From Leptobacterium flavescens (GTDB taxonomy: Bacteria; Bacteroidota; Bacteroidia; Flavobacteriales; Flavobacteriaceae), in NCBI RefSeq assembly GCF_010671605.1, contig NZ_JAABOO010000003.1, positions 311,993 to 375,992 on the forward strand: a DNA stretch of 64,000 bases. The letters are read 5' to 3'. Positions 10,809 through 57,634 of the stretch are shown piece by piece (position 1 is the stretch's first letter; every line of letters begins with the position of its first letter). The translations under genes were made by a program, and so were the position numbers. Below the pieces are notes generated by a model that saw only the letters and a list, made by a program, of their open reading frames with translations, was not told the DNA's origin and did no database searches.

Positions 10809-11266
10809 ACACTGTATTCGAGTTCCATTCTGATGTCACACCTGGGTGATTCTATTGGCCCCTTAACCGTTTTAAATCCATAACTGTGGTAAAGACCGAT
10901 TGCAGCTTCCATTTTATAAGAGGTTTCCAGGATAATTTTTCGGGCATTCCTCCTTCCCGCTTCTCTTATTAGCTCTTCCAGCATTTGCCTCCCGTATCCC
11001 TGACCCCTGTAGCTGTTGCTCACATACATCTTGCGAATTTTAAAAAGGCCTTCACCTTCATTTTTTAACGCCCCTGTAGCCATAACAGAGCTTCCATTCT
11101 CAAAGATCAGGAAGAGACCACCCGCATTGGTATAGGAGGCTTCAATATCTTCCAGATCGGCCTCCGAACTGTTTTTGGCATAGTCAAAATCAAATTCGGA
11201 AAGCCCTTTCAGAACCAATTCTACAATTTGTTCTCTGTCCTTATTTGTCGCAGCTCTGATAATCAT
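10805..11266 (-). CDS. GNAT family N-acetyltransferase
   Basis: Acetyl-CoA-binding motif RGQGYGRQML, about 150 aa. Confidence 0.7.
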   Translation of the reverse strand: MIIRAATNKDREQIVELVLKGLSEFDFDYAKNSSEADLEDIEASYTNAGGLFLIFENGSSVMATGALKNEGEGLFKIRKMYVSNSYRGQGYGRQMLEELIREAGRRNARKIILETSYKMEAAIGLYHSYGFKTVKGPIESPRCDIRMELEYSV

Positions 11267-11382
11267 AACTTAAAGATACTGTTTCTGTTACTATGTTTTA
11301 ATGCAATGACCAATAACCAATAACCAATGATCAATGATCAATTACCAATGACCAAATTCCAAACTCCAAATAAGTGAGAGCA

Positions 11383-11562
11383 AAATTCCCTCCTGTCATC
11401 CTGAGCGCAGTCGAAGGAAAAGGAGGGGTGCCTGCCTTTACTATAGGAGCGTTAAACTCCTTATGATGTCATTCCTCCGCAGGTAGGAATCTTCCCGTAA
11501 CCGGAATGGATTCCGCAACAAGTGCGGAAATCAAAGATTCGACGAAGTCAATGACAATTTTA
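11383..11562 (+). repeat. Structured intergenic repeat element, copy A (about 175 bp), flanked by 20-bp direct repeats ccaaattccaaactccaaat (11352-11371 and 11589-11610)
   Basis: Shares cctcctgtcatcctgagcgcagtcgaaggaaaaggaggg ... ggaatggattccgcaacaagtgcggaaatcaaagattcgacgaagtcaatgacaatttt with the reverse complement of 51628-51800 and with 57527-57564. Confidence 0.8.
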
Positions 11563-11652
11563 GTACTAACAACAACCACCAACTAAATCCCAAATTCCAA
11601 ACTCCAAATTCTAATCGCTAACAACCATCAACTAAAAACCAACAACCGAAAA

Positions 11653-14600
11653 CTACTCAACCCTCATCACATTATCTTCCTGCTTTGTATCCGGGTGGGC
11701 GCCAAACGGATCAATAACGATATATTCCGGAAGCTGATCCACCACTATTTTTATACGTGAGTTCTCCTTGTTGAATTTGTGTTGTTTCAGATACACCGGC
11801 CGGTCATCAATCCCCATTTCGGAAGGATGCTTCATAAAAGCTCCGATCTGAATAGGATTATTAATGGAAACCCTGGCTGTCTTACCCGATTCGTCCGTTT
11901 CGAATTTCCCGGTATGGAATTCCAGGCTCAACTCATAACGCCCGTTGCTCAGTTTTTTGTAGCTGGAAGATCGTACACTGAGGTCGTAGGTCATGATCCT
12001 TTTAAACAGGTCGTCTATCAGGCTGTGCTTTTCCTGAGGAGTTATGTTATAGAGTTTTTCCAGCAGATCCGGAGAGGTTACTTTAAACTCCGTTCCTCCG
12101 TTATATTCGTCTACCAATTCCTTTAGTACAACATTAAGCTGCGCTTCCCCTATCATTTCTTTCAGGGCCTGCATTACATGATAAGCTTTCCCGTATTGCA
12201 GATAAGACTCGCCGCCTACAAGATAAAGGGGAGGCTCAGGATCGGAGCTAAAGGAGCGTCCGCTAAAATAACGTTGAGTTGCATTTTTACTGAGCTGCCA
12301 TAAAGATCCGCTGCCTTCAATTTTTTCCATAACAGCCGCTTCCGTGTACTTGGTTATTACTTCCACGAAAATGCTGGCTCCATCCGTTAGCTTGGGATAA
12401 ATAACATGCCCCCACCACTGGTGTGCTACCTCATGTATAGTACGTTTGGCAACCAGGTCAAAAGCTCCGGGATCTCTGAGATCTATAAGGTAGAGGTTGT
12501 CTTCCACCATACTGATGGTCCCGGGCATAGCCATCCCTCCAAAAGGCCAGTGCGAGGGTATCTCTGCGATCCGCAGATGATCGAAAGGGTATTTCCCGAA
12601 ATTCTCTGTGCAATAATCCAGCGATATTTTAGTCACCTCCATGATCCGGTCTATATTAAAATCATGCCCGGGATGATAGTAGAGTTCGATGGAAATACCT
12701 TTGTAGATCTCTTTTTTAAGCTGGTAAGCGGCCGAAAAGTAACCTAACAACGGGCTTACCGGAGTATCGCTTTTATAGTGATAGTAATTACGGTTGTTTT
12801 CGGTCCATTTGCGAAGGAGGTTTCCCGGTGCAATTGCCATTTGATCTCCGGAGGTCGATACAACGGTTTCGAAAAGGACTTTCCCTATCTTATTATCCGC
12901 TTCAAACTGGAGATGACCCGAATCAACTTCATCCACCTCCCGCTTGGAGAGCCCTCTTTTCTGGCGCTCAAAATCGCTTGAGATCTCCCAGCTTCGCTTA
13001 TAGCCTAGTGAAGGCTCAAAACTCTGATGAAGTATATAGGAGCCGTTATTTACGATATCCCTCCGGGTTTCGAAACCGTCATTGTTCACAAAAGCTTCAT
13101 AACGGAACTTTAATTGCTCTCCGGGTAGCAACTCCCTGTCAAGTTCGAAAAGGTAAGTGTTAAAGGCTGAATCCTTCTCTACCAGACGTGCATTTTCCAG
13201 CCATACCGAACGCAGCGGCTCCCTCTCTGAAATAAGAACGGTCTTTACAGGATTTTCATTCTTGTTCTCGAGGATATAATCGGTTTTTATGACCATCTCG
13301 GCTTTTTGGGGAAACATAGCAACTTCTGTCTTCATTGCTACCGGAAATAGTTCTTCGAGCTCCTCATACTTTTTGTATTTACGCTCATAAGCTTCGCTGA
13401 AATCCAGACGGTCATCGATGGTAGTGTATTCATTTACCAGATTGGTGTTATAAAAGACAGACCCTCCGGATACAAGCAACAGAAGCAAAGAAGAAAACAG
13501 GATAGCTTTTTCGGTCTTTGTCCATTTACTCCTTAATCTTCTCCATCTGAACCTAAGCCCGGAAATAGCTCCTCTTTTCCATAATTTAAAGGATAAAACA
13601 GCCAGGATCAGGGCAACGGACAGCCAGTAAAGAGCAAATTGATTAAAGGGTTTGCTGTAATGGCCAAATCCGGTCATATTGGTATAGGTAGTCCGCGGAA
13701 AGTTCCCTAACTGAAGCATAGGATGTTCAATACCGATACCTGCGGCCAGAGAACTTCCCATAAGTACGATGAGGAGGCCGGTAATAAACATGCCTATATA
13801 TTTGTTTGGCGCCAGGCTTTGAATAAAAAGAGCCAGGCATCCGTAAAACAGGCTTCTCATTCCCGAGTGATAGAACAGGAACAGATATTGTGTCCACTCG
13901 AATTCATAATATCCCTTGGAGATCTGAAAACCGACTGCGATCAGAATACTCAGAAAGATCAGCATCAGCGGAAGGAGCATCAGGGCAGTGAATTTAGAAA
14001 CAAAGAACGCCAGGCTGGATGTGGGGGTCCCGTCTATGATACCGTTAAAGTTGGTGGTGCGTTCCTTCCAGGCAAGCTCTCCGCTGTAAAAAATTATAAG
14101 AATGGTACTGAGAAGCGGAAGCGGGTCTTTGATCAACCATATTAAAAGATCGGTGGTCGGGTAAAGATCGTTGTTGTAATCTCCTCCTCCGTTAATACGG
14201 GTATAGATCTCTGATGCTACAATAACTATCCAGATGAGTAAAATACCTATAAAAGGCAGGCTTCTGGAAATACCTTTCAGTTCCAAACCGATTAAAGTTC
14301 TTAGCGTGGCCCATTGAAATTTGTTCCCGGAAGTAAATGCCGGAGTGGGCTTATAAATGGTCTTTTCGGTCTTCGAAGACGAGAATACCTCTTTCTTCCC
14401 GGCCTTGCGATCTAATTTCCGGAAAGAGAAGATCTTGTAACTGGCCCAGCTTAAGAGCAATGCAAAAGAGATCCATATAATTCTGTTCCACATAAAGAAA
14501 CCGGAAAAAGAGAGGTTTTGACTGTTCTTTTGGAACGGGGTCCAATACTGGGTTTGCTCAAAGAATGCAGAGATCCCGAACGGATCGGCCAAAGCGGCAA

Positions 14601-17664: not shown

Positions 17665-18365
17665 TGAAATATATTATTGTCGACGACGAGCCTATAGCTC
17701 ATGATATCATAGAAGAATATGCCGGAGAACTGGATGACATGGAATTGGTGGGCAAATGCTATAATGCGATAGAAGCCATCAGCCTGTTACAAAAAAAGGA
17801 GGTAGATCTGATATTCCTGGATATTGAGATGCCAAAACTAAAGGGACTCGATTTTCTCAGGACCCTGAGTAATCCTCCTCTGGTAGTCATTACTACGGCC
17901 TATTCGGAGTTTGCGGTAGAGAGCTATGAGTTAACAGTTACCGATTACCTGCTGAAGCCTTTTGGTTTTGATCGTTTCTTAAAAGCTTATACCAAAGTAA
18001 AGAAAGCAAAGGAACAGGCAGATGCGGCAGGGAAAAGCAGCCCGGTAAAGGAAGCAACTTCCAAAAGTGTTTTCTTAAAAGGAGATAAAGAGATCTATCA
18101 TATTAAACTCGACGATATCCTCTACCTGGAGAGCTATGGGAATTATGTAAAAGTGCATGTTGGAAAGGAGGTACTTCTTATTCATGAAACCCTGTCCAAT
18201 ATGGAAAGCACACTCCCCTCCGAACAGTTTTTAAGGGTTCACCGTTCATTTATGATCCAGATCTCCTGTATAGATCGCATCACCGGAAACCAGATCAAAA
18301 TAGGAGATGCCACTATTCCTATCGGAAGATCTTATAAGGCAATTGTGAATAACAGACTTTTTTAG
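17664..18365 (+). CDS. LytTR-family response regulator
   Basis: REC domain (IIVDDEP…, D at LFLDIEMP). C-terminal LytTR DNA-binding domain. Start overlaps the kinase stop. Confidence 0.85.
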   Translation: MKYIIVDDEPIAHDIIEEYAGELDDMELVGKCYNAIEAISLLQKKEVDLIFLDIEMPKLKGLDFLRTLSNPPLVVITTAYSEFAVESYELTVTDYLLKPFGFDRFLKAYTKVKKAKEQADAAGKSSPVKEATSKSVFLKGDKEIYHIKLDDILYLESYGNYVKVHVGKEVLLIHETLSNMESTLPSEQFLRVHRSFMIQISCIDRITGNQIKIGDATIPIGRSYKAIVNNRLF

Positions 18366-18456
18366 CAATGAACAATGATCAATAAGCAATAAACAATAAA
18401 CAATGAGCAATTTCCAAATTAACTCATTTTCAAATCAACTAATCCTGTATACCTTC

Positions 18457-18506
18457 AACCAACAACCAACAACCAACAACCAACAACCAACAACCAACAA
18501 CCAAAC
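18457..18506. repeat. Heptanucleotide microsatellite (AACCAAC) of about 7 units
   Basis: caaccaacaaccaacaacc... in the intergenic region upstream of the S9 peptidase. Related aacc/caat low-complexity tracts occur at 11270-11350, 11565-11650, 21551-21660, 36240-36290 and 51586-51627. Confidence 0.8.
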
Positions 18507-18742
18507 TCCAAATTCCAATCCCGATAGCTATCGGGACCAAATTCCAGGTTCCAATGGCTAATGGCTAAAAACTAATCACTAACAGCTAACAACCAACAAC
18601 TAATAACCAACAACTAATAACTAACATCTGTCATCCTTTAAGTTAGAGATGTTAATTTTAACATAGTCCCTCCCCAAAAAGTTTTATATTTCATTGATTT
18701 TAAGAACTAAACTCAATTTACCAATCTATAACTCCAGCCAAA

Positions 18743-21550: not shown

Positions 21551-21662
21551 TGCCAATTGACAATGAACAATTAACAATGGTTGTTGTTTAATTAGCTAGC
21601 TGTTAGCAGTTAGTTTGTTTCCATGTGCTCCGTAGCTTGGGCGAAGGAGCAACAATCAACAA

Positions 21663-22214
21663 TCAACATTCCTCCCGCCATTCCCAGTTGATAAGCTCCC
21701 AGGAAACGCCATCGCTTGTTTGGGTTTTCAGGACCTTGAAGCCAACACTTTTATGCGCTTCCAGAGATCGTATATTACTGCTGGCCACTTCGGTGAACAG
21801 GCAATCGAATTCGTCTTTCAATTCCTCTCTGTAAAAACCATAAAGCCCTCTGAAAATTCCCTGCTTCCGATACGGCCGGTCTATGCAGACCTGGCCCATT
21901 ACAATATATTTCCTTCCCTTTAATAACTCATCGGCTGTTTCGAACATAGGAACAAGGACCGGGAATTCCTCCCGGAAAGAAGGCAGCATGGCCAGCGCGT
22001 AGCCTGCCACCGTATTCCCGTCTTTGGCAATGATATGGGCACAGCTTGTATTCATCTTTTTAAGGGTCTCAAAGCTGTGATGTACCGTTATGAAACCTTC
22101 AAGCTGTTGATCTTCTTCAGATAAATTAACCTTAAAGTTCCGCTTCTGTATCTCGAGGATCTGCTGCAATTCGTCATCAGACGAAGCTCTTTTATATACA
22201 ATTGAAGCGCCCAT
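21663..22214 (-). CDS. GNAT-like acetyltransferase (hypothetical)
   Basis: 183 aa, acyl-CoA N-acyltransferase-like pattern. No clear motif beyond the fold-level resemblance. Confidence 0.45.
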   Translation of the reverse strand: MGASIVYKRASSDDELQQILEIQKRNFKVNLSEEDQQLEGFITVHHSFETLKKMNTSCAHIIAKDGNTVAGYALAMLPSFREEFPVLVPMFETADELLKGRKYIVMGQVCIDRPYRKQGIFRGLYGFYREELKDEFDCLFTEVASSNIRSLEAHKSVGFKVLKTQTSDGVSWELINWEWREEC

Positions 22215-36218: not shown

Positions 36219-36350
36219 AAATTTTTTATCTATTAAAGGGTAAGATTTAAAATTAACAATAACTAATAACTAAAGTACAGTTTTTAAATTTTTTTAGGTA
36301 AAATCCTTTAAAATTTAGAGATTTATAGTATTAACCATCAATTTTATTTT

Positions 36351-41193: not shown

Positions 41194-41282
41194 AAAGAAG
41201 GATAAAATAACCTGCGCAGGGAAGACACAAGTCCCAAGTGTCTATAAATGTTTGGGAACCGATTAATCTTTAAACTTTAATT

Positions 41283-41465
41283 ATGTTAAAAAACATTTTA
41301 AAACTGGAAGGAACTCAGGAATTGGGTAAAAACGAACAGCGTCAAATCAGTGGTGGAGTGTCCGGCGGGCCGATTTACTGCGACTCCGATGCAGATTGTG
41401 CTATTGTATGCGGAAAGTGCGTAGGCTTCGGGATTTGCCTTCATGCTGTACCTGCCTGTGCTTAA
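41283..41465 (+). CDS. Double-glycine-leader precursor peptide, 6-Cys core (bacteriocin/RiPP-like)
   Basis: Leader MLKNILKLEGTQELGKNEQRQISGG fits L(-12) E(-8) I(-4) G(-2) G(-1). Core VSGGPIYCDSDADCAIVCGKCVGFGICLHAVPACA. Confidence 0.6.
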   Translation: MLKNILKLEGTQELGKNEQRQISGGVSGGPIYCDSDADCAIVCGKCVGFGICLHAVPACA

Positions 41466-41748: not shown

Positions 41749-41815
41749 AAGACCAGACACAAACCCCGGGTGTCTTTAAATGTTCGGGGAATAGCTAATT
41801 TAAAATTCAAACATC

Positions 41816-42043
41816 ATGTTAAAAAACATTTTAAATGTAAAAGGAGTTCAGCAACTCAGCAAAGATGAGCAAAGAGCCATCGGAGGTGGGATGCTTGGAG
41901 TACAGTGTAACACTTTAAGCCAGTGCTCTCTTAATTGCAACGGAAGTACCGAAGAGTGTGTTGCAATAAGTATTCCTACAGGCGGAGGCCTGATAGAGCA
42001 CGTCGTATGTTACGAATGTGTAAGTACAATTAACCACCAGTAA
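41816..42043 (+). CDS. Double-glycine-leader precursor peptide, 6-Cys core
   Basis: Leader MLKNILNVKGVQQLSKDEQRAIGGG (LSxxE…I.GG consensus). Core MLGVQCNTLSQCSLNCNGSTEECVAISIPTGGGLIEHVVCYECVSTINHQ. Confidence 0.6.
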   Translation: MLKNILNVKGVQQLSKDEQRAIGGGMLGVQCNTLSQCSLNCNGSTEECVAISIPTGGGLIEHVVCYECVSTINHQ

Positions 42044-50697: not shown

Positions 50698-51585
50698 ATG
50701 AACAGACAACAGGCTAAATGGTTTTACCTAATTATTCTATCGTTAATCTGGGGAAGCTCATTTATCCTTATCAAAAAGTCACTCATAGGCTTAACACCCA
50801 TACAGGTAGGGGCACTCCGCATCATAATTACAGCTATTTTTCTTTTTATGGCTGGGACCAAAACCCTGAAAGAGATCAAAAAGGAGCACTGGAAATGGAT
50901 TGCCTGGTCCGGTTTTTTAGGTTCATTCTTTCCGCCTTTCCTGTTTGCCGTTGCGCAAACCGAGTTGGACAGTGCTATTGCATCTATTCTTAATTCCCTT
51001 ACTCCGTTAAATACTACGATCTCCGGAATATTACTGTTCGGTATTATCGTAACCCGGAGACAGATATGGGGTGTTGTTCTGGGGCTACTCGGAACCGTTA
51101 TCCTGATCGCAAAGGGAGCAGAGTTCAATCCGGATCAGAATTATTGGTATAGCACCCTTATCATTGTTTCATCTGTAGGTTACGCCCTCAATGTGAATAT
51201 CCTTAAAAAATACCTCCAGGGATTAAGTGCTTTGAGCATTGCCGTGGGGAATTTTCTGGTTATACTGGTTCCCGCTATCATTGTATTGATAAGCACCGGT
51301 TTCTTCATTACGGTCTTTTCTAACCCGGAAATGCATACCGGCCTTGTTTATGTGGTGGTACTATCGCTTTTCGGAACAGCTATTGCCAAGGTACTTTTCA
51401 ATAAACTCGTAAGTGTTGCGAGTCCTGTCTTTGCGTCTTCGGTTACCTATACCATGCCGTTGATGGCTATCTTCTGGGGGGTACTGGACGGAGAATCCCT
51501 GAGTGTTTACCAGCTTATCGGCGGGGTGATCATTTTACTGGGGGTTTATCTGGCCAATAAGAAGAATGGGAATAATAATAAGTAG
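50698..51585 (+). CDS. DMT-superfamily (EamA) transporter
   Basis: 10 TM helices, two EamA repeats. Confidence 0.8.
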   Translation: MNRQQAKWFYLIILSLIWGSSFILIKKSLIGLTPIQVGALRIIITAIFLFMAGTKTLKEIKKEHWKWIAWSGFLGSFFPPFLFAVAQTELDSAIASILNSLTPLNTTISGILLFGIIVTRRQIWGVVLGLLGTVILIAKGAEFNPDQNYWYSTLIIVSSVGYALNVNILKKYLQGLSALSIAVGNFLVILVPAIIVLISTGFFITVFSNPEMHTGLVYVVVLSLFGTAIAKVLFNKLVSVASPVFASSVTYTMPLMAIFWGVLDGESLSVYQLIGGVIILLGVYLANKKNGNNNK

Positions 51586-51627
51586 GGGTTGTTGGTTGTT
51601 AGTTGATGGTTATTAGTAATTAGTTAC

Positions 51628-51800
51628 TAAAATTGTCATTGACTGCGTCGAATCTTCGATTTCCGCACTTGTTGCGGAATCCATTCTGGTTATGAGAAAG
51701 ATTCCTGCCTACCGGTAGGCCCTCCTTTTCTTTCGACTTGCGCCTCCGCTATAGCTTCAGCGGCACGCGGGCGCTCAGGATGACAGGAGGGGGATTTTAT
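51628..51800 (-). repeat. Structured intergenic repeat element, copy B (inverted orientation, with an extra internal hairpin insert)
   Basis: Reverse complement aligns with 11383-11562 over both the 5' module (ccctcctgtcatcctgagcg…aaaaggaggg) and the 3' module (gaatggattccgcaacaagtgcggaaatcgaagattcgacgcagtcaatgacaatttt). Confidence 0.8.
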
Positions 51801-51937
51801 ATATACGACACTCAAAAATTCCTTCCCTTTTGAAGGGAAGGTGGCTTTAACGCAGTTAAAGACGGAAGGGTTAAATAACTCCCGGAGACTTGTTATTCAG
51901 TTTAAAAAGAAATGTTATTCAACTCAACAAGAAAGGT

Positions 51938-52040
51938 TAAACAGTTTAAGAAGAGAAGTTAAACAGTTTAAAGTAAAAGGTTAAACAACTTAAAAAGAAA
52001 GCTTAAACCATTTTTAAAGACTTGTTTAACCACTCTAAAA
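51938..52040. repeat. Array of 4-5 degenerate palindromic sites TTAAACnGTTTAA spaced about 21-22 bp apart
   Basis: gttaaacagtttaag / gttaaacagtttaaag / gttaaacaacttaaaaag / ttaaaccatttttaaag / gtttaaccactctaaaaaag. Stops in all frames. Confidence 0.7.
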
Positions 52041-57477: not shown

Positions 57478-57509
57478 AACCTCTTCCGGAAACGGAGGAG
57501 GTTTTTTTG
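57478..57509 (+). terminator. Rho-independent terminator after rplU-rpmA
   Basis: cctcttccggaaacggaggagg followed by ttttttt. Confidence 0.7.
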
Positions 57510-57526
57510 TTATAACTACCCTGGTT

Positions 57527-57564
57527 CTCCTGTCATCCTGAGCGCAGTCGAAGGAAAAGGAGGG
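57527..57564 (+). repeat. Partial copy C (5' hairpin module only) of the intergenic repeat
   Basis: ctcctgtcatcctgagcgcagtcgaaggaaaaggaggg, identical to 11388-11426. Confidence 0.75.
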
Positions 57565-57634
57565 GAGTACAGATAAAGAGGAAGGGTTAATCTCTGTTGT
57601 AACAGGAAAATTAAATACTACTCAATAAGTTTTG

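Follow-up and report, generated by a model that had tools for sequence, protein, structure and literature searches.

Structured intergenic repeats of Leptobacterium flavescens as probable mosaics of very short tagged hairpins

Introduction

In a 64,000-nucleotide stretch of the Leptobacterium flavescens genome (contig NZ_JAABOO010000003.1, positions 311,993 to 375,992 of the forward strand; hereafter called the window and numbered from its first letter), three intergenic regions contain related copies of a structured repeat, here designated A, B and C. This raises the question of what kind of element they represent. The original prediction, which was made from the sequence alone, proposed a modular element of about 175 bp from a mobile or recombinogenic family resembling miniature inverted-repeat transposable elements (MITEs), repetitive extragenic palindromes (REPs) or bacterial interspersed mosaic elements (BIMEs), with a role as an RNA structure. 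Here, we argue that the copies are probably BIME-like mosaics of very short hairpin repeats of the CGTC/SRM class, embedded in heptamer DNA and representing substrates or relics of an Ssn system.

Two published groups of repeats define this class. The CGTC-tagged REPs carry a CGTC, TGTC or CCTC tag and stems that start with AT, with a stem of 8-9 bp and a loop of 4-5 nt. They occur mostly as inverted dimers, sometimes inside palindromes or mosaic regions, and no dedicated transposase has been reported for them (Di Nocera et al. 2013, PMC3733652). The second group is typified by the Neisseria NTS (CGTCATTCCCGCG..GCGGGAATC), which is bound by SsnA, a single-domain GIY-YIG nuclease of 94 aa, solely as single-stranded DNA (ssDNA) and in one orientation (Chenal et al. 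2025, PMC11893778). The nick made by SsnA lies a few nucleotides 5' of the motif. Cleavage depends on the GTC that precedes the palindrome and binding on the C that follows it, which is the most critical position for binding, while the identity of the loop is dispensable and loop extensions are tolerated. In Neisseria and Wolbachia, the hairpins form on ssDNA, where the small GIY-YIG protein Ssn recognizes them in a single orientation and cuts just 5' of the head, at a distance of a few nucleotides. The related motifs are termed SRMs, and 71% of the ssnA homologues are flanked by them (PMC11893778). Heptameric repeats are known to be in excess in bacterial intergenic DNA, e.g. (GGGAATC)n in Xanthomonas and the cyanobacterial short tandemly repeated repetitive (STRR) sequences, and this excess is unexplained (PMC4692102).

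Results

Copies A, B and C consist of separable hairpin units

The three repeat copies described in the original prediction are real and far beyond chance: A spans 11388-11556, B spans 51634-51791 in inverted orientation, and C spans 57527-57564. The host DNA is chromosomal and the genes around the copies are housekeeping genes; the GNAT and L21 proteins encoded in the window have 100% identity to L. flavescens entries at NCBI. A 39-nt hairpin is shared with 100% identity between 11390-11428 and 57527-57565, the 3' module of copy A (11492-11565) matches 51625-51698 in inverted orientation with 93% identity over 74 nt, and a further flank match of 37 nt connects 11611-11647 with 51587-51623 (89% identity). 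The core 24-mer and a 19-nt palindrome each occur exactly twice in the window, compared with an expectation of 0.00 from shuffled sequences.

The units within the copies have a common architecture: a short palindrome, in most cases starting with AT, is preceded by a (T)GTCAT head and, as a rule, followed by a C. They are arranged as a mosaic in which unit 1 lies in the loop of another hairpin and is followed by an inverted doublet of about 90 nt (unit 2 ... unit 3 / unit X), all of it in heptamer arrays (Table 1). In copy A, the doublet at 11467-11556 has 7-bp termini (TGTCATT/AATGACA), and the long-range pairing of its arms is present in the predicted fold. Unit 2 of copy B is missing its GTCAT head, and the extra hairpin in the loop of its 5' hairpin, which had been noticed before, was confirmed as a 32-nt insertion at 51739-51770.

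The homologous block of A and B begins 1-6 nt past a TAG stop codon and has, in both copies, the same orientation to the gene that ends there. The two stop codons, at 11653-11655 (copy A) and 51583-51585 (copy B), belong to unrelated genes, which encode an M1 peptidase/ABC-2 fusion and an EamA transporter, respectively. It may be that insertion of A and B supplied or abutted these stop codons. No terminator was found between the stop codon and the element on the TAG side of either copy. The proposal that all copies follow terminators was thus correct for C, which lies behind the rpmA terminator, and for B only relative to the hairpin of the convergent gene (51821-51841); on the TAG side it applied neither to A nor to B. 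The orientation relative to the upstream gene also differs between A/B and C.

The units occur verbatim and independently in other genomes

One genome per species was scanned for unit 1 (GTCATCCTGAGCGCAGTCGAAGG), and its exact 23-mer core was found at no fewer than 119 genome loci, which belong to more than 10 phyla and include cultured isolates. Verbatim copies are present in Bacteroidota, Acidobacteriota, Verrucomicrobiota, Eremiobacterota, Planctomycetota, Clostridia, Patescibacteria, Gammaproteobacteria and others. A genome scan with the pattern GGATTCCGCANNNNTGCGGAAATC gave zero matches, which are uninformative because the pattern specified a loop of four N and the real loop has 5 nt. In a metagenome scan, the junction TGCGGAAATCNAAGATTCGACG inside the 3' module was found in 10 unrelated contigs with GC contents of 29-53%, and the piece of unit X common to these contigs is the 33-mer TGCGGAAATCRAAGATTCGACGNAGTCAATGACA. 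At the locus L123, unit X forms a perfect inverted doublet of 107 nt as well as a doublet of 87 nt with one short and one long arm, and four unit X copies are found within 14.8 kb. Left arms equivalent to that of unit 2 are present at L121, L123 and L129.

The unit X doublet also occurs in plasmids of A. baumannii. On one of them (NZ_CP072123.1, 35930-36021) and on 13 similar plasmids, a doublet TGTCAT...GTCAATGACA is located in a low-GC dfrA45-thyA segment, which is bracketed by two copies of ISVsa3 (IS91-like); the same doublet is found in metagenome contigs of 29-44% GC. These sequences hint at capture of the segment from a low-GC, possibly Bacteroidota-like chromosome.

A relative of unit 3 with a full GTCAT head is present in Allomuricauda (L073). 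Furthermore, relatives of the 18-bp palindrome of the window (see below), of the loop insert of copy B and of unit 3 are found in Flagellimonas/Allomuricauda. Each module is found alone in other genomes and, therefore, the copies do not represent one element of about 175 bp.

The stem of unit 1 covaries

The frame of unit 1 consists of GTCA, a 4-nt stem and GAGCG, optionally an additional hairpin of 10-50 nt, and then (A)GTCGA, the complementary stem and TC. The extended form, with a hairpin between GAGCG and GTCGA, was found in Flagellimonas (L010) and in many other phyla. Because this form is so widespread, the extra hairpin of copy B is a common form of the motif rather than an oddity.

Covariation was analyzed with 30 distinct unit 1 sequences, variants that were obtained as by-catch in the fetched loci. 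Compensatory changes of the stem include CCT/AGG, GCT/AGC, TCT/AGA, CTT/AAG and CCC/GGG. A pair was formed in 86.7% of the cells, compared with 68% in shuffled sequences (0/500 as high), and 29 double-sided changes were counted, compared with 7.7 in the shuffles (0/500). The covariation score of the stem was 0.60, and it did not exceed 0.17 when the partners were slid against each other. In addition, two Verrucomicrobiae metagenome-assembled genomes (MAGs) that represent different species are 77% identical over 2.2 kb, and 27 unit nucleotides are identical at an orthologous intergenic site. These comparisons indicate that unit 1 is a selected, structured hairpin. Its commonest generic form is GTC-ATCCT..AGGAT-C (45 of 170 instances).

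Two other interpretations of the unit 1 sequence were rejected. A hammerhead or other ribozyme was discarded, as CUGAGCG...GUCGAA is by eye unlike the CUGANGA...GAAA core and the Rfam search gave no such match. An IncP-type nic site (ATCCTG) was discarded because the respective stretch covaries and is not conserved among the variants.

The units resemble SRMs and CGTC-tagged REPs

The layout GTC-palindrome-C, i.e. the oriented SRM architecture, is present in unit 2, in unit X (TGTC-ATTGAC..GTCgAAT-C on the minus strand), and in the generic form of unit 1. An unpaired TGTC tag precedes unit 1 (11394), unit 2 (11467) and unit X (minus strand, 11556), and is also present in the solo head at 18629. 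The stems of the units start with AT, and units 2 and X form an inverted dimer, but only three copy loci are found within 64 kb. Unit 1 has a stem of 4-5 bp and a loop of 12 nt. Unit 3 approaches the stem and loop size of the CGTC-tagged REPs without having a GTC tag, and its relative at L073 fits them fully.

Some GIY-YIG genes are flanked by units

In a Bacteroidaceae MAG (L033), exact copies of unit 1 are located 17 nt 5' of the ATG and again past the stop codon of an open reading frame (ORF) that was assigned to the GIY-YIG family by its match to PF01541 (54 bits). In a Sumerlaeota MAG (L053), an exact unit 1 adjoins a frameshifted GIY-YIG ORF. The homologues of the L033 gene in gut Bacteroidaceae (L132-L139) have GTCAT-headed hairpins on both sides, and the homologues on viral contigs of IMG/VR have a flanking hairpin of their own. 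The best 120 homologues of the L033 protein all stem from gut Bacteroidales. As for more distant relatives, an approximate sequence of E. coli YhbQ gave one weak match when it was compared with the neighbours of unit 1, and no solved structural relative of Ssn was found beyond a weak UPF0213 match.

These loci have several further features. The region L033:3780-4620 is composed of tandem repeats of about 113 nt, each of which contains two GTCA...GAGC...CGA...TC units in inverted arrangement; the GIY-YIG gene is inserted between two of these repeats. In L132-L139, the site of the gene is conserved and lies behind the gene for DNA polymerase III delta (holA-adjacent). L132 and L134 differ in the number of flanking GTCAT unit pairs, and in L135 the gene and the units are duplicated in tandem.

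Copies B and C were gained on the Leptobacterium branch

Three syntenic relatives (L140, L141, and L142, Flavobacteriaceae bacterium R38), in which L21 is 77-81% identical, are syntenic with the window both at rplU-rpmA and at EamA|M16. In these relatives, the spacer between EamA and M16 measures 65, 180 and 238 nt and lacks copy B, compared with 706 nt in the window. The rpmA terminator is kept in 4/4 genomes and is followed by copy C only in the window. Because B and C are absent from the orthologous sites of three syntenic relatives, these comparisons argue that both copies are lineage gains, acquired on the Leptobacterium branch. A comparison of orthologous spacers had been suggested in the original prediction; its outcome favours acquisition at the level of species, not of strains. 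Within 20 kb, L140 and L142 contain neither a heptamer array nor a GTCAT hairpin and L141 contains one array, and the heptamer arrays were probably gained on the same branch, as judged from these sequences.

In L141, a gene for an HNH endonuclease of 100 aa (11124-11426) is located 3' of rpmA, where copy C is located in the window. The spacer downstream of rpmA has gathered different selfish DNA in different lineages.

Units are nested in the loops of other hairpins

A flanking stem of at least 6 bp around unit 1 was found for 4/132 instances, compared with 0.5 expected, and these cases are confined to the Flavobacteriaceae. The outer hairpin was, therefore, rejected as a general feature of unit 1 and is regarded as specific for this family. 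Both filled and empty host hairpins were observed: GTCACATCGAGC|unit|GCAGTCGAGATG is filled in Allomuricauda, and the empty host hairpin is present in Flagellimonas pacifica. Likewise, the loop of the hairpin CCTTCCCTT..AAGGGAAGG contains no unit in the window and at L101:2955-2976, and it holds unit 1 at L010:1667-1708 and L101:3804. In Flagellimonas (L019), a GTCAT unit holds in its loop a palindrome that is nearly identical to the 18-bp palindrome of the window.

The hairpin CCTTCCCTT-loop-AAGGGAAGG is recurrent in Leptobacterium and Flagellimonas. At six loci of Eremiobacterota/Treponemataceae (L055, L042, L116, L013, L074 and L082), reiterated 5' halves of unit 1 (GTCATCCTGAGCGC plus 7-9 nt) are followed by one complete unit, and sometimes the 3' halves (CGAAGGA) are reiterated. 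From the sequence, these runs could be the product of repeated nested insertion or of slippage at the loop.

The flanking repeats are parts of heptamer arrays

Tandem Repeats Finder (TRF) detected arrays with a period of 7 at 11304-11371, 11585-11653, 18364-18626, 21554-21668, 36254-36273 and 51587-51617. They are imperfect and intergenic, and C/A-rich on the plus strand with the exception of the G/T-rich array at 51587. The direct repeats of 20 bp (CCAAATTCCAAACTCCAAAT) that had been reported around copy A were found at 11352-11371 and 11590-11609. They are composed of three heptamers (CCAAATT CCAAACT CCAAAT), and the homology of A and B resumes beyond the right repeat and extends to 11647, 38 nt past the repeat. 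Since the repeats are pieces of period-7 arrays and the homology of A and B passes through them, they were ruled out as target-site duplications. The pair is also not a general flank as proposed, but occurs at copy A only. The palindrome at 18.5 kb, originally described as a perfect palindrome of 16 bp, is real and has a length of 18 bp (TCCCGATAGCTATCGGGA, 18519-18536).

The consensus of the left array, CAATGAC, is the reverse complement of a GTCATTG head and identical to the end of unit X, and arrays of GGAATGN / CATTCNN surround unit X in rumen contigs. Arrays could thus be reiterated unit ends, which fits the left array of the window and the rumen contigs; among the 14 arrays of other loci that have a unit at a distance of up to about 100 nt, most do not conform to it. 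In the 139 comparison loci, period 7 was the most frequent with 62 arrays, compared with 24 arrays each for periods 6 and 8 and six arrays for period 5. A causal link between units and heptamer arrays is speculative.

Table 1. Repeat units, hairpins and arrays in the window
Feature	Position	Strand	Description
Copy A unit 1	11388..11427	+	Core GTCATCCTGAGCGCAGTCGAAGGA (11395-11418) within the loop of the outer 7-bp hairpin CCCTCCT/AGGAGGG
Small spacer hairpin AGGAG-CGTTAAA-CTCCT, specific for copy A	11445..11461	+	Missing from copy B in the A/B alignment
Unit 2, TGTC-ATTCCT-CCGCAGGT-AGGAAT-C	11467..11491	+	CGTC/SRM-type architecture; left arm of the inverted doublet
Unit 3 hairpin, GGATTCCGCA-ACAAG-TGCGGAAATC	11508..11532	+	7 bp TTCCGCA/TGCGGAA, 5-nt loop
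Unit X, minus-strand reading TGTCATTGACTTCGTCGAATCTTTGATTTCCGCA	11523..11556	-	Right arm of the ~90-nt doublet 11467-11556
Copy B units	51634..51706	+	Unit X 51634-51667, unit 3 51658-51682, unit 2 3' half 51698-51706
Palindrome CCTACCGGTAGG, specific for copy B	51708..51719	.	In place of the A-specific spacer
Copy B unit 1, in the same outer hairpin as in A	51720..51791	-	Extra 32-nt hairpin between GAGCGC and AGTCGA (51739-51770)
Copy C, solo unit 1 in its outer hairpin	57527..57564	+	Starts 25 nt 3' of the rpmA terminator stem 57480-57501
Terminator-like hairpin CCTTCCCTT-CAA-AAGGGAAGG	51821..51841	-	Adjoins copy B
Left heptamer array, consensus CAATGAC	11304..11371	+	TRF period 7, 7.4 copies; last 20 nt = direct-repeat copy 1
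Right heptamer array	11567..11653	+	Holds direct-repeat copy 2 within a 44-nt stretch not in copy B
Copy B heptamer array	51587..51623	+	G/T-rich on +; begins 2 nt past the EamA TAG stop
Array-only locus	18364..18637	+	Heptamer arrays around the 18-bp palindrome 18519-18536; ends in the solo head TGTCATCCT (18629-18637)

Other features of the window

The cumulative GC skew climbs from 0 to about 52 kb and then drops, and copy B with the sole G/T-rich array (plus strand) is located at the turning point, which may correspond to a switch of replication strand. Between copy B and the M16 peptidase gene, a 22-bp tandem repeat is present in five copies (51898-52008, consensus CAGTTTAAAAAGAAAGGTTAAA). 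It overlaps a probably spurious ORF of 83 aa without a Pfam match and, on the basis of its sequence, looks like iterons or an array of binding sites. The starts of two small ORFs at 41280-41356 and 41813-41889 are 70% identical and encode MLKNILKLEGTQELGKNEQRQISGG and MLKNILNVKGVQQLSKDEQRAIGGG (translated by hand). They look like double-glycine leader peptides of tandem paralogous precursors of bacteriocins or ribosomally synthesized and post-translationally modified peptides.

Discussion

Nature and possible origin of the mosaics

The tagged hairpins, the mosaic arrangement and the empty sites in relatives point to the REP/BIME-like part of the original prediction, and we consider it probable that copies A, B and C are built from hairpin repeats of the CGTC/SRM class within heptamer DNA that are, or once were, substrates of an Ssn system. 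The idea of a single MITE of about 175 bp with target-site duplications was not upheld, as the modules are independent. A possible course of events is the following. The whole mosaic including the array (at least 260 nt) would have been copied once within the genome, giving rise to A and B, which then would have diverged by insertions and deletions at the level of units, and C would be a solo unit. We infer that the Leptobacterium units are substrates or relics of an Ssn-like system, in which cutting of ssDNA by the nuclease, followed by repair or strand-switching, would spread and rearrange the units, preferentially into exposed hairpin loops and repeat arrays. The heptamer arrays would be prone to slippage. 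Any role as a 3' mRNA hairpin would be a consequence of position, not a driver of spread.

Several observations weigh against this explanation. The 64-kb window contains no GIY-YIG/Ssn ORF, and a GIY-YIG gene adjoins unit 1 at only 2 of the 119 loci listed. When all ORFs within 400 bp of unit 1 were compared by all-against-all BLAST for the 119 loci listed, no recurrent neighbour protein family was found. This is as expected if hundreds of repeats exist per single gene, and the link to Ssn thus rests on a few loci and the literature. Furthermore, the published SRM pattern, HGTCWYN(0-2)YYVSBRHN(0-5)WNVSBRGN(0-2)RNCYNB, had no match on either strand of the window (shuffle mean 0.1). It matches none of units 1, 2, 3 and X nor the unit at L073; the NTS, used as a control, matches. 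With 6 bp and an 8-nt loop, unit 2 lies outside the size range of the CGTC-tagged REPs, as does unit X with 6 bp plus a bulge and a 3-nt loop. The unit 1 copies of the window end with ...GGAAAAGG (AGGAA-A) and have no AT-C after the stem; they may be decayed. Between co-directional ORFs, unit 1 has a sense bias of 36:13, which would also be expected from a function in the transcript.

A more far-reaching version can be formulated, in which GTCAT hairpins of about 25 nt are the smallest mobile DNA, cut and pasted by Ssn-type GIY-YIG nucleases into ssDNA hairpin loops, and in which the repair of recurrent cuts at the heads seeds the heptamer arrays. It is consistent with, though not sufficiently supported by, the filled and empty loops, the cross-phylum verbatim units, the CAATGAC array that equals the unit X end, the GGAATGN / CATTCNN arrays of the rumen contigs, the dominance of period 7 and the array-free regions of L140 and L142. 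We regard it as rather doubtful. If it were true, it would constitute a GIY-YIG-based transposition of ssDNA, comparable but unrelated to IS200/IS605, with cassettes of ssn plus motif crossing phyla, and it would account for the long-known surplus of heptameric tandem repeats between bacterial genes.

Alternative explanations

The most serious competitor is a structured RNA element selected at the RNA level, e.g. a stabilizer of transcript 3' ends, a terminator, an insulator or a small RNA. The E. coli REPs stabilize upstream mRNA, and a similar function would agree with the position of A and B directly past stop codons and of C behind the rpmA terminator, with the sense bias and covarying stem of unit 1, and with predicted folds that are moderately more stable than those of shuffled sequences (z = -1.7 to -2.8). 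However, no Rfam family reached its gathering threshold in the whole window, and even at E <= 10 the sole match in 11250-11670 was a T-box chance match (E = 4). The inconsistent orientation of the copies to the upstream gene also speaks against an RNA, as does the placement of unit 1, of which 21 of 112 classifiable instances are located in divergent (promoter-side) spacers and 21 are inside ORFs. Nesting and adjacency to GIY-YIG genes are the behaviour of a DNA element, and the Neisseria SsnA binds its motif only as ssDNA, not as RNA (PMC11893778). In our analysis, nothing showed the RNA-level role that the original prediction had assumed, and the best-characterized relatives act as ssDNA. 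We thus consider an RNA element unlikely.

Classical REPs or REPINs that are mobilized by a REP-associated tyrosine transposase (RAYT), an IS200/IS605-like Y1 HUH transposase, appear very unlikely. Hairpins with a conserved 5' tetranucleotide, inverted doublets such as those at L123, and the BIME-like clustering would be in accordance with such a system, and subclass 2.6 of TnpA(REP) is mostly found in Bacteroidetes and has atypical hairpins (PMC6006769). Yet, the head is GTCA(T) instead of GT[AG]G, the published hairpins of subclass 2.6 (e.g. GCTAGCGCGAGCG..., PMC6006769 supplement) are unrelated, and no Y1 transposase recurs beside unit 1 at the 119 loci listed; in addition, REPs of the CGTC type are reported without a dedicated RAYT (PMC3733652).

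The reading of the original prediction as a conventional MITE of about 175-220 bp, derived from an insertion sequence (IS) and with a target-site duplication of 20 bp, is highly improbable. The exact direct repeats around A, the 7-bp inverted termini of the doublet and the absence of the copies from relatives would fit. However, the repeats occur only at A and equal three heptamers of a tandem array, the right one lies within the 44-nt stretch that B lacks with A/B homology extending 38 nt past the repeat, the modules occur separately in copy C and in other genomes, and no IS with matching ends was seen. An element bounded by target-site duplications is thus largely refuted.

An ordinary duplication of a low-complexity intergenic segment, with hairpins that arose by chance, for which one could cite flanks made of heptamer arrays, a class over-represented in bacteria (PMC4692102), and three loci in 64 kb, can practically be dismissed, because zero matches are expected from shuffled sequences, exact units of 23-33 nt are common to dozens of unrelated genomes, and the stem covaries.

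Implications

The three oddly long intergenic regions of the window would, accordingly to this class assignment, be lineage-specific selfish or semi-domesticated hairpin repeats and not new genes or regulators, and the CGTC-REP / Ssn-motif class would be extended to Flavobacteriia. The strongest leads are the pattern of loop insertion and the loop-tolerant GAGCG/GTCGA variant, which is missed by the published pattern. This variant has a short covarying stem and a loop that can hold a second hairpin, and it is found verbatim in more than 10 phyla. Its units would be candidate substrates for uncharacterized Ssn nucleases, enzymes that are under development as ssDNA tools. Loop nesting and the association with arrays are testable hints on how such repeats spread, a question that the 2013 and 2025 papers left open.

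Comparison with known systems

Among the known systems, the SRM/NTS motifs are close to the units. An HGTC plus AT head is followed by a palindrome and then a C, and the motifs are oriented, intergenic, clustered and present across phyla. In both cases, the identity of the loop is unimportant and loop extensions are tolerated, and small GIY-YIG genes have the motif on both sides, here at L033 and L132-L139. The differences are that unit 1 has a stem of 4-5 bp and a conserved 12-nt loop (GAGCGCAGTCGA), compared with a stem of 8-9 bp and a loop of 3-5 nt for SRMs, that the published pattern misses the units, that the C after the stem is absent from unit 1 in the window, and that the window has no ssn gene. 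We know of no enzymology of Ssn in Bacteroidota.

With the CGTC-REP superfamily, which includes the Neisseria dRS3 and Rickettsia RPE-4/6, the units share the TGTC/CGTC tag, AT-starting stems, inverted dimers, insertion in other palindromes, mosaic intergenic clusters, the lack of a dedicated transposase and the occurrence in several phyla. The stem and loop lengths are outside those of the four described families, and the GAGCG...GTCGA loop type is not described there. As far as the consulted part of the survey goes, its supplement entries for 'Bacteroidetes/Chlorobi' are Chlorobi, and no name for Flavobacteriia was found (PMC3733652). A description of such repeats in Flavobacteriia was also not found in the literature, and searches with sequence strings gave only irrelevant papers. 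The statement that the family has no named description in Flavobacteriia is therefore correct only in part, as the superfamily as such is named, as CGTC-tagged REPs (PMC3733652) and as SRM/NTS (PMC11893778).

The REPs and BIMEs of E. coli and the REPIN-RAYT systems of Pseudomonas likewise consist of short extragenic palindromes with a tag, the doublets of which fold into long hairpins; as with the copies described here, they form mosaics at the 3' ends of genes and are acquired in a lineage-specific manner. The Leptobacterium copies differ in the head (GTCA(T) vs GT[AG]G) and in that no RAYT is associated with them; REPINs are species-specific and vertically inherited, whereas the units described here are verbatim between phyla.

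The closest parallel in phenomenology appears to be found in cyanobacteria, although the sequences and the phylum differ. Elhai and co-workers reportedly described in 2008 that Nostoc contains hairpin repeats of 21-27 nt, SDR1-8, which are located in heptameric STRR arrays, are nested, and were judged to be mobile by comparison of orthologues. No enzyme is said to have been assigned to them, and neither a GTCAT head nor a link to GIY-YIG proteins was reportedly part of that description. Like the Leptobacterium units, they are thus short hairpins that sit inside heptamer arrays and inside one another.

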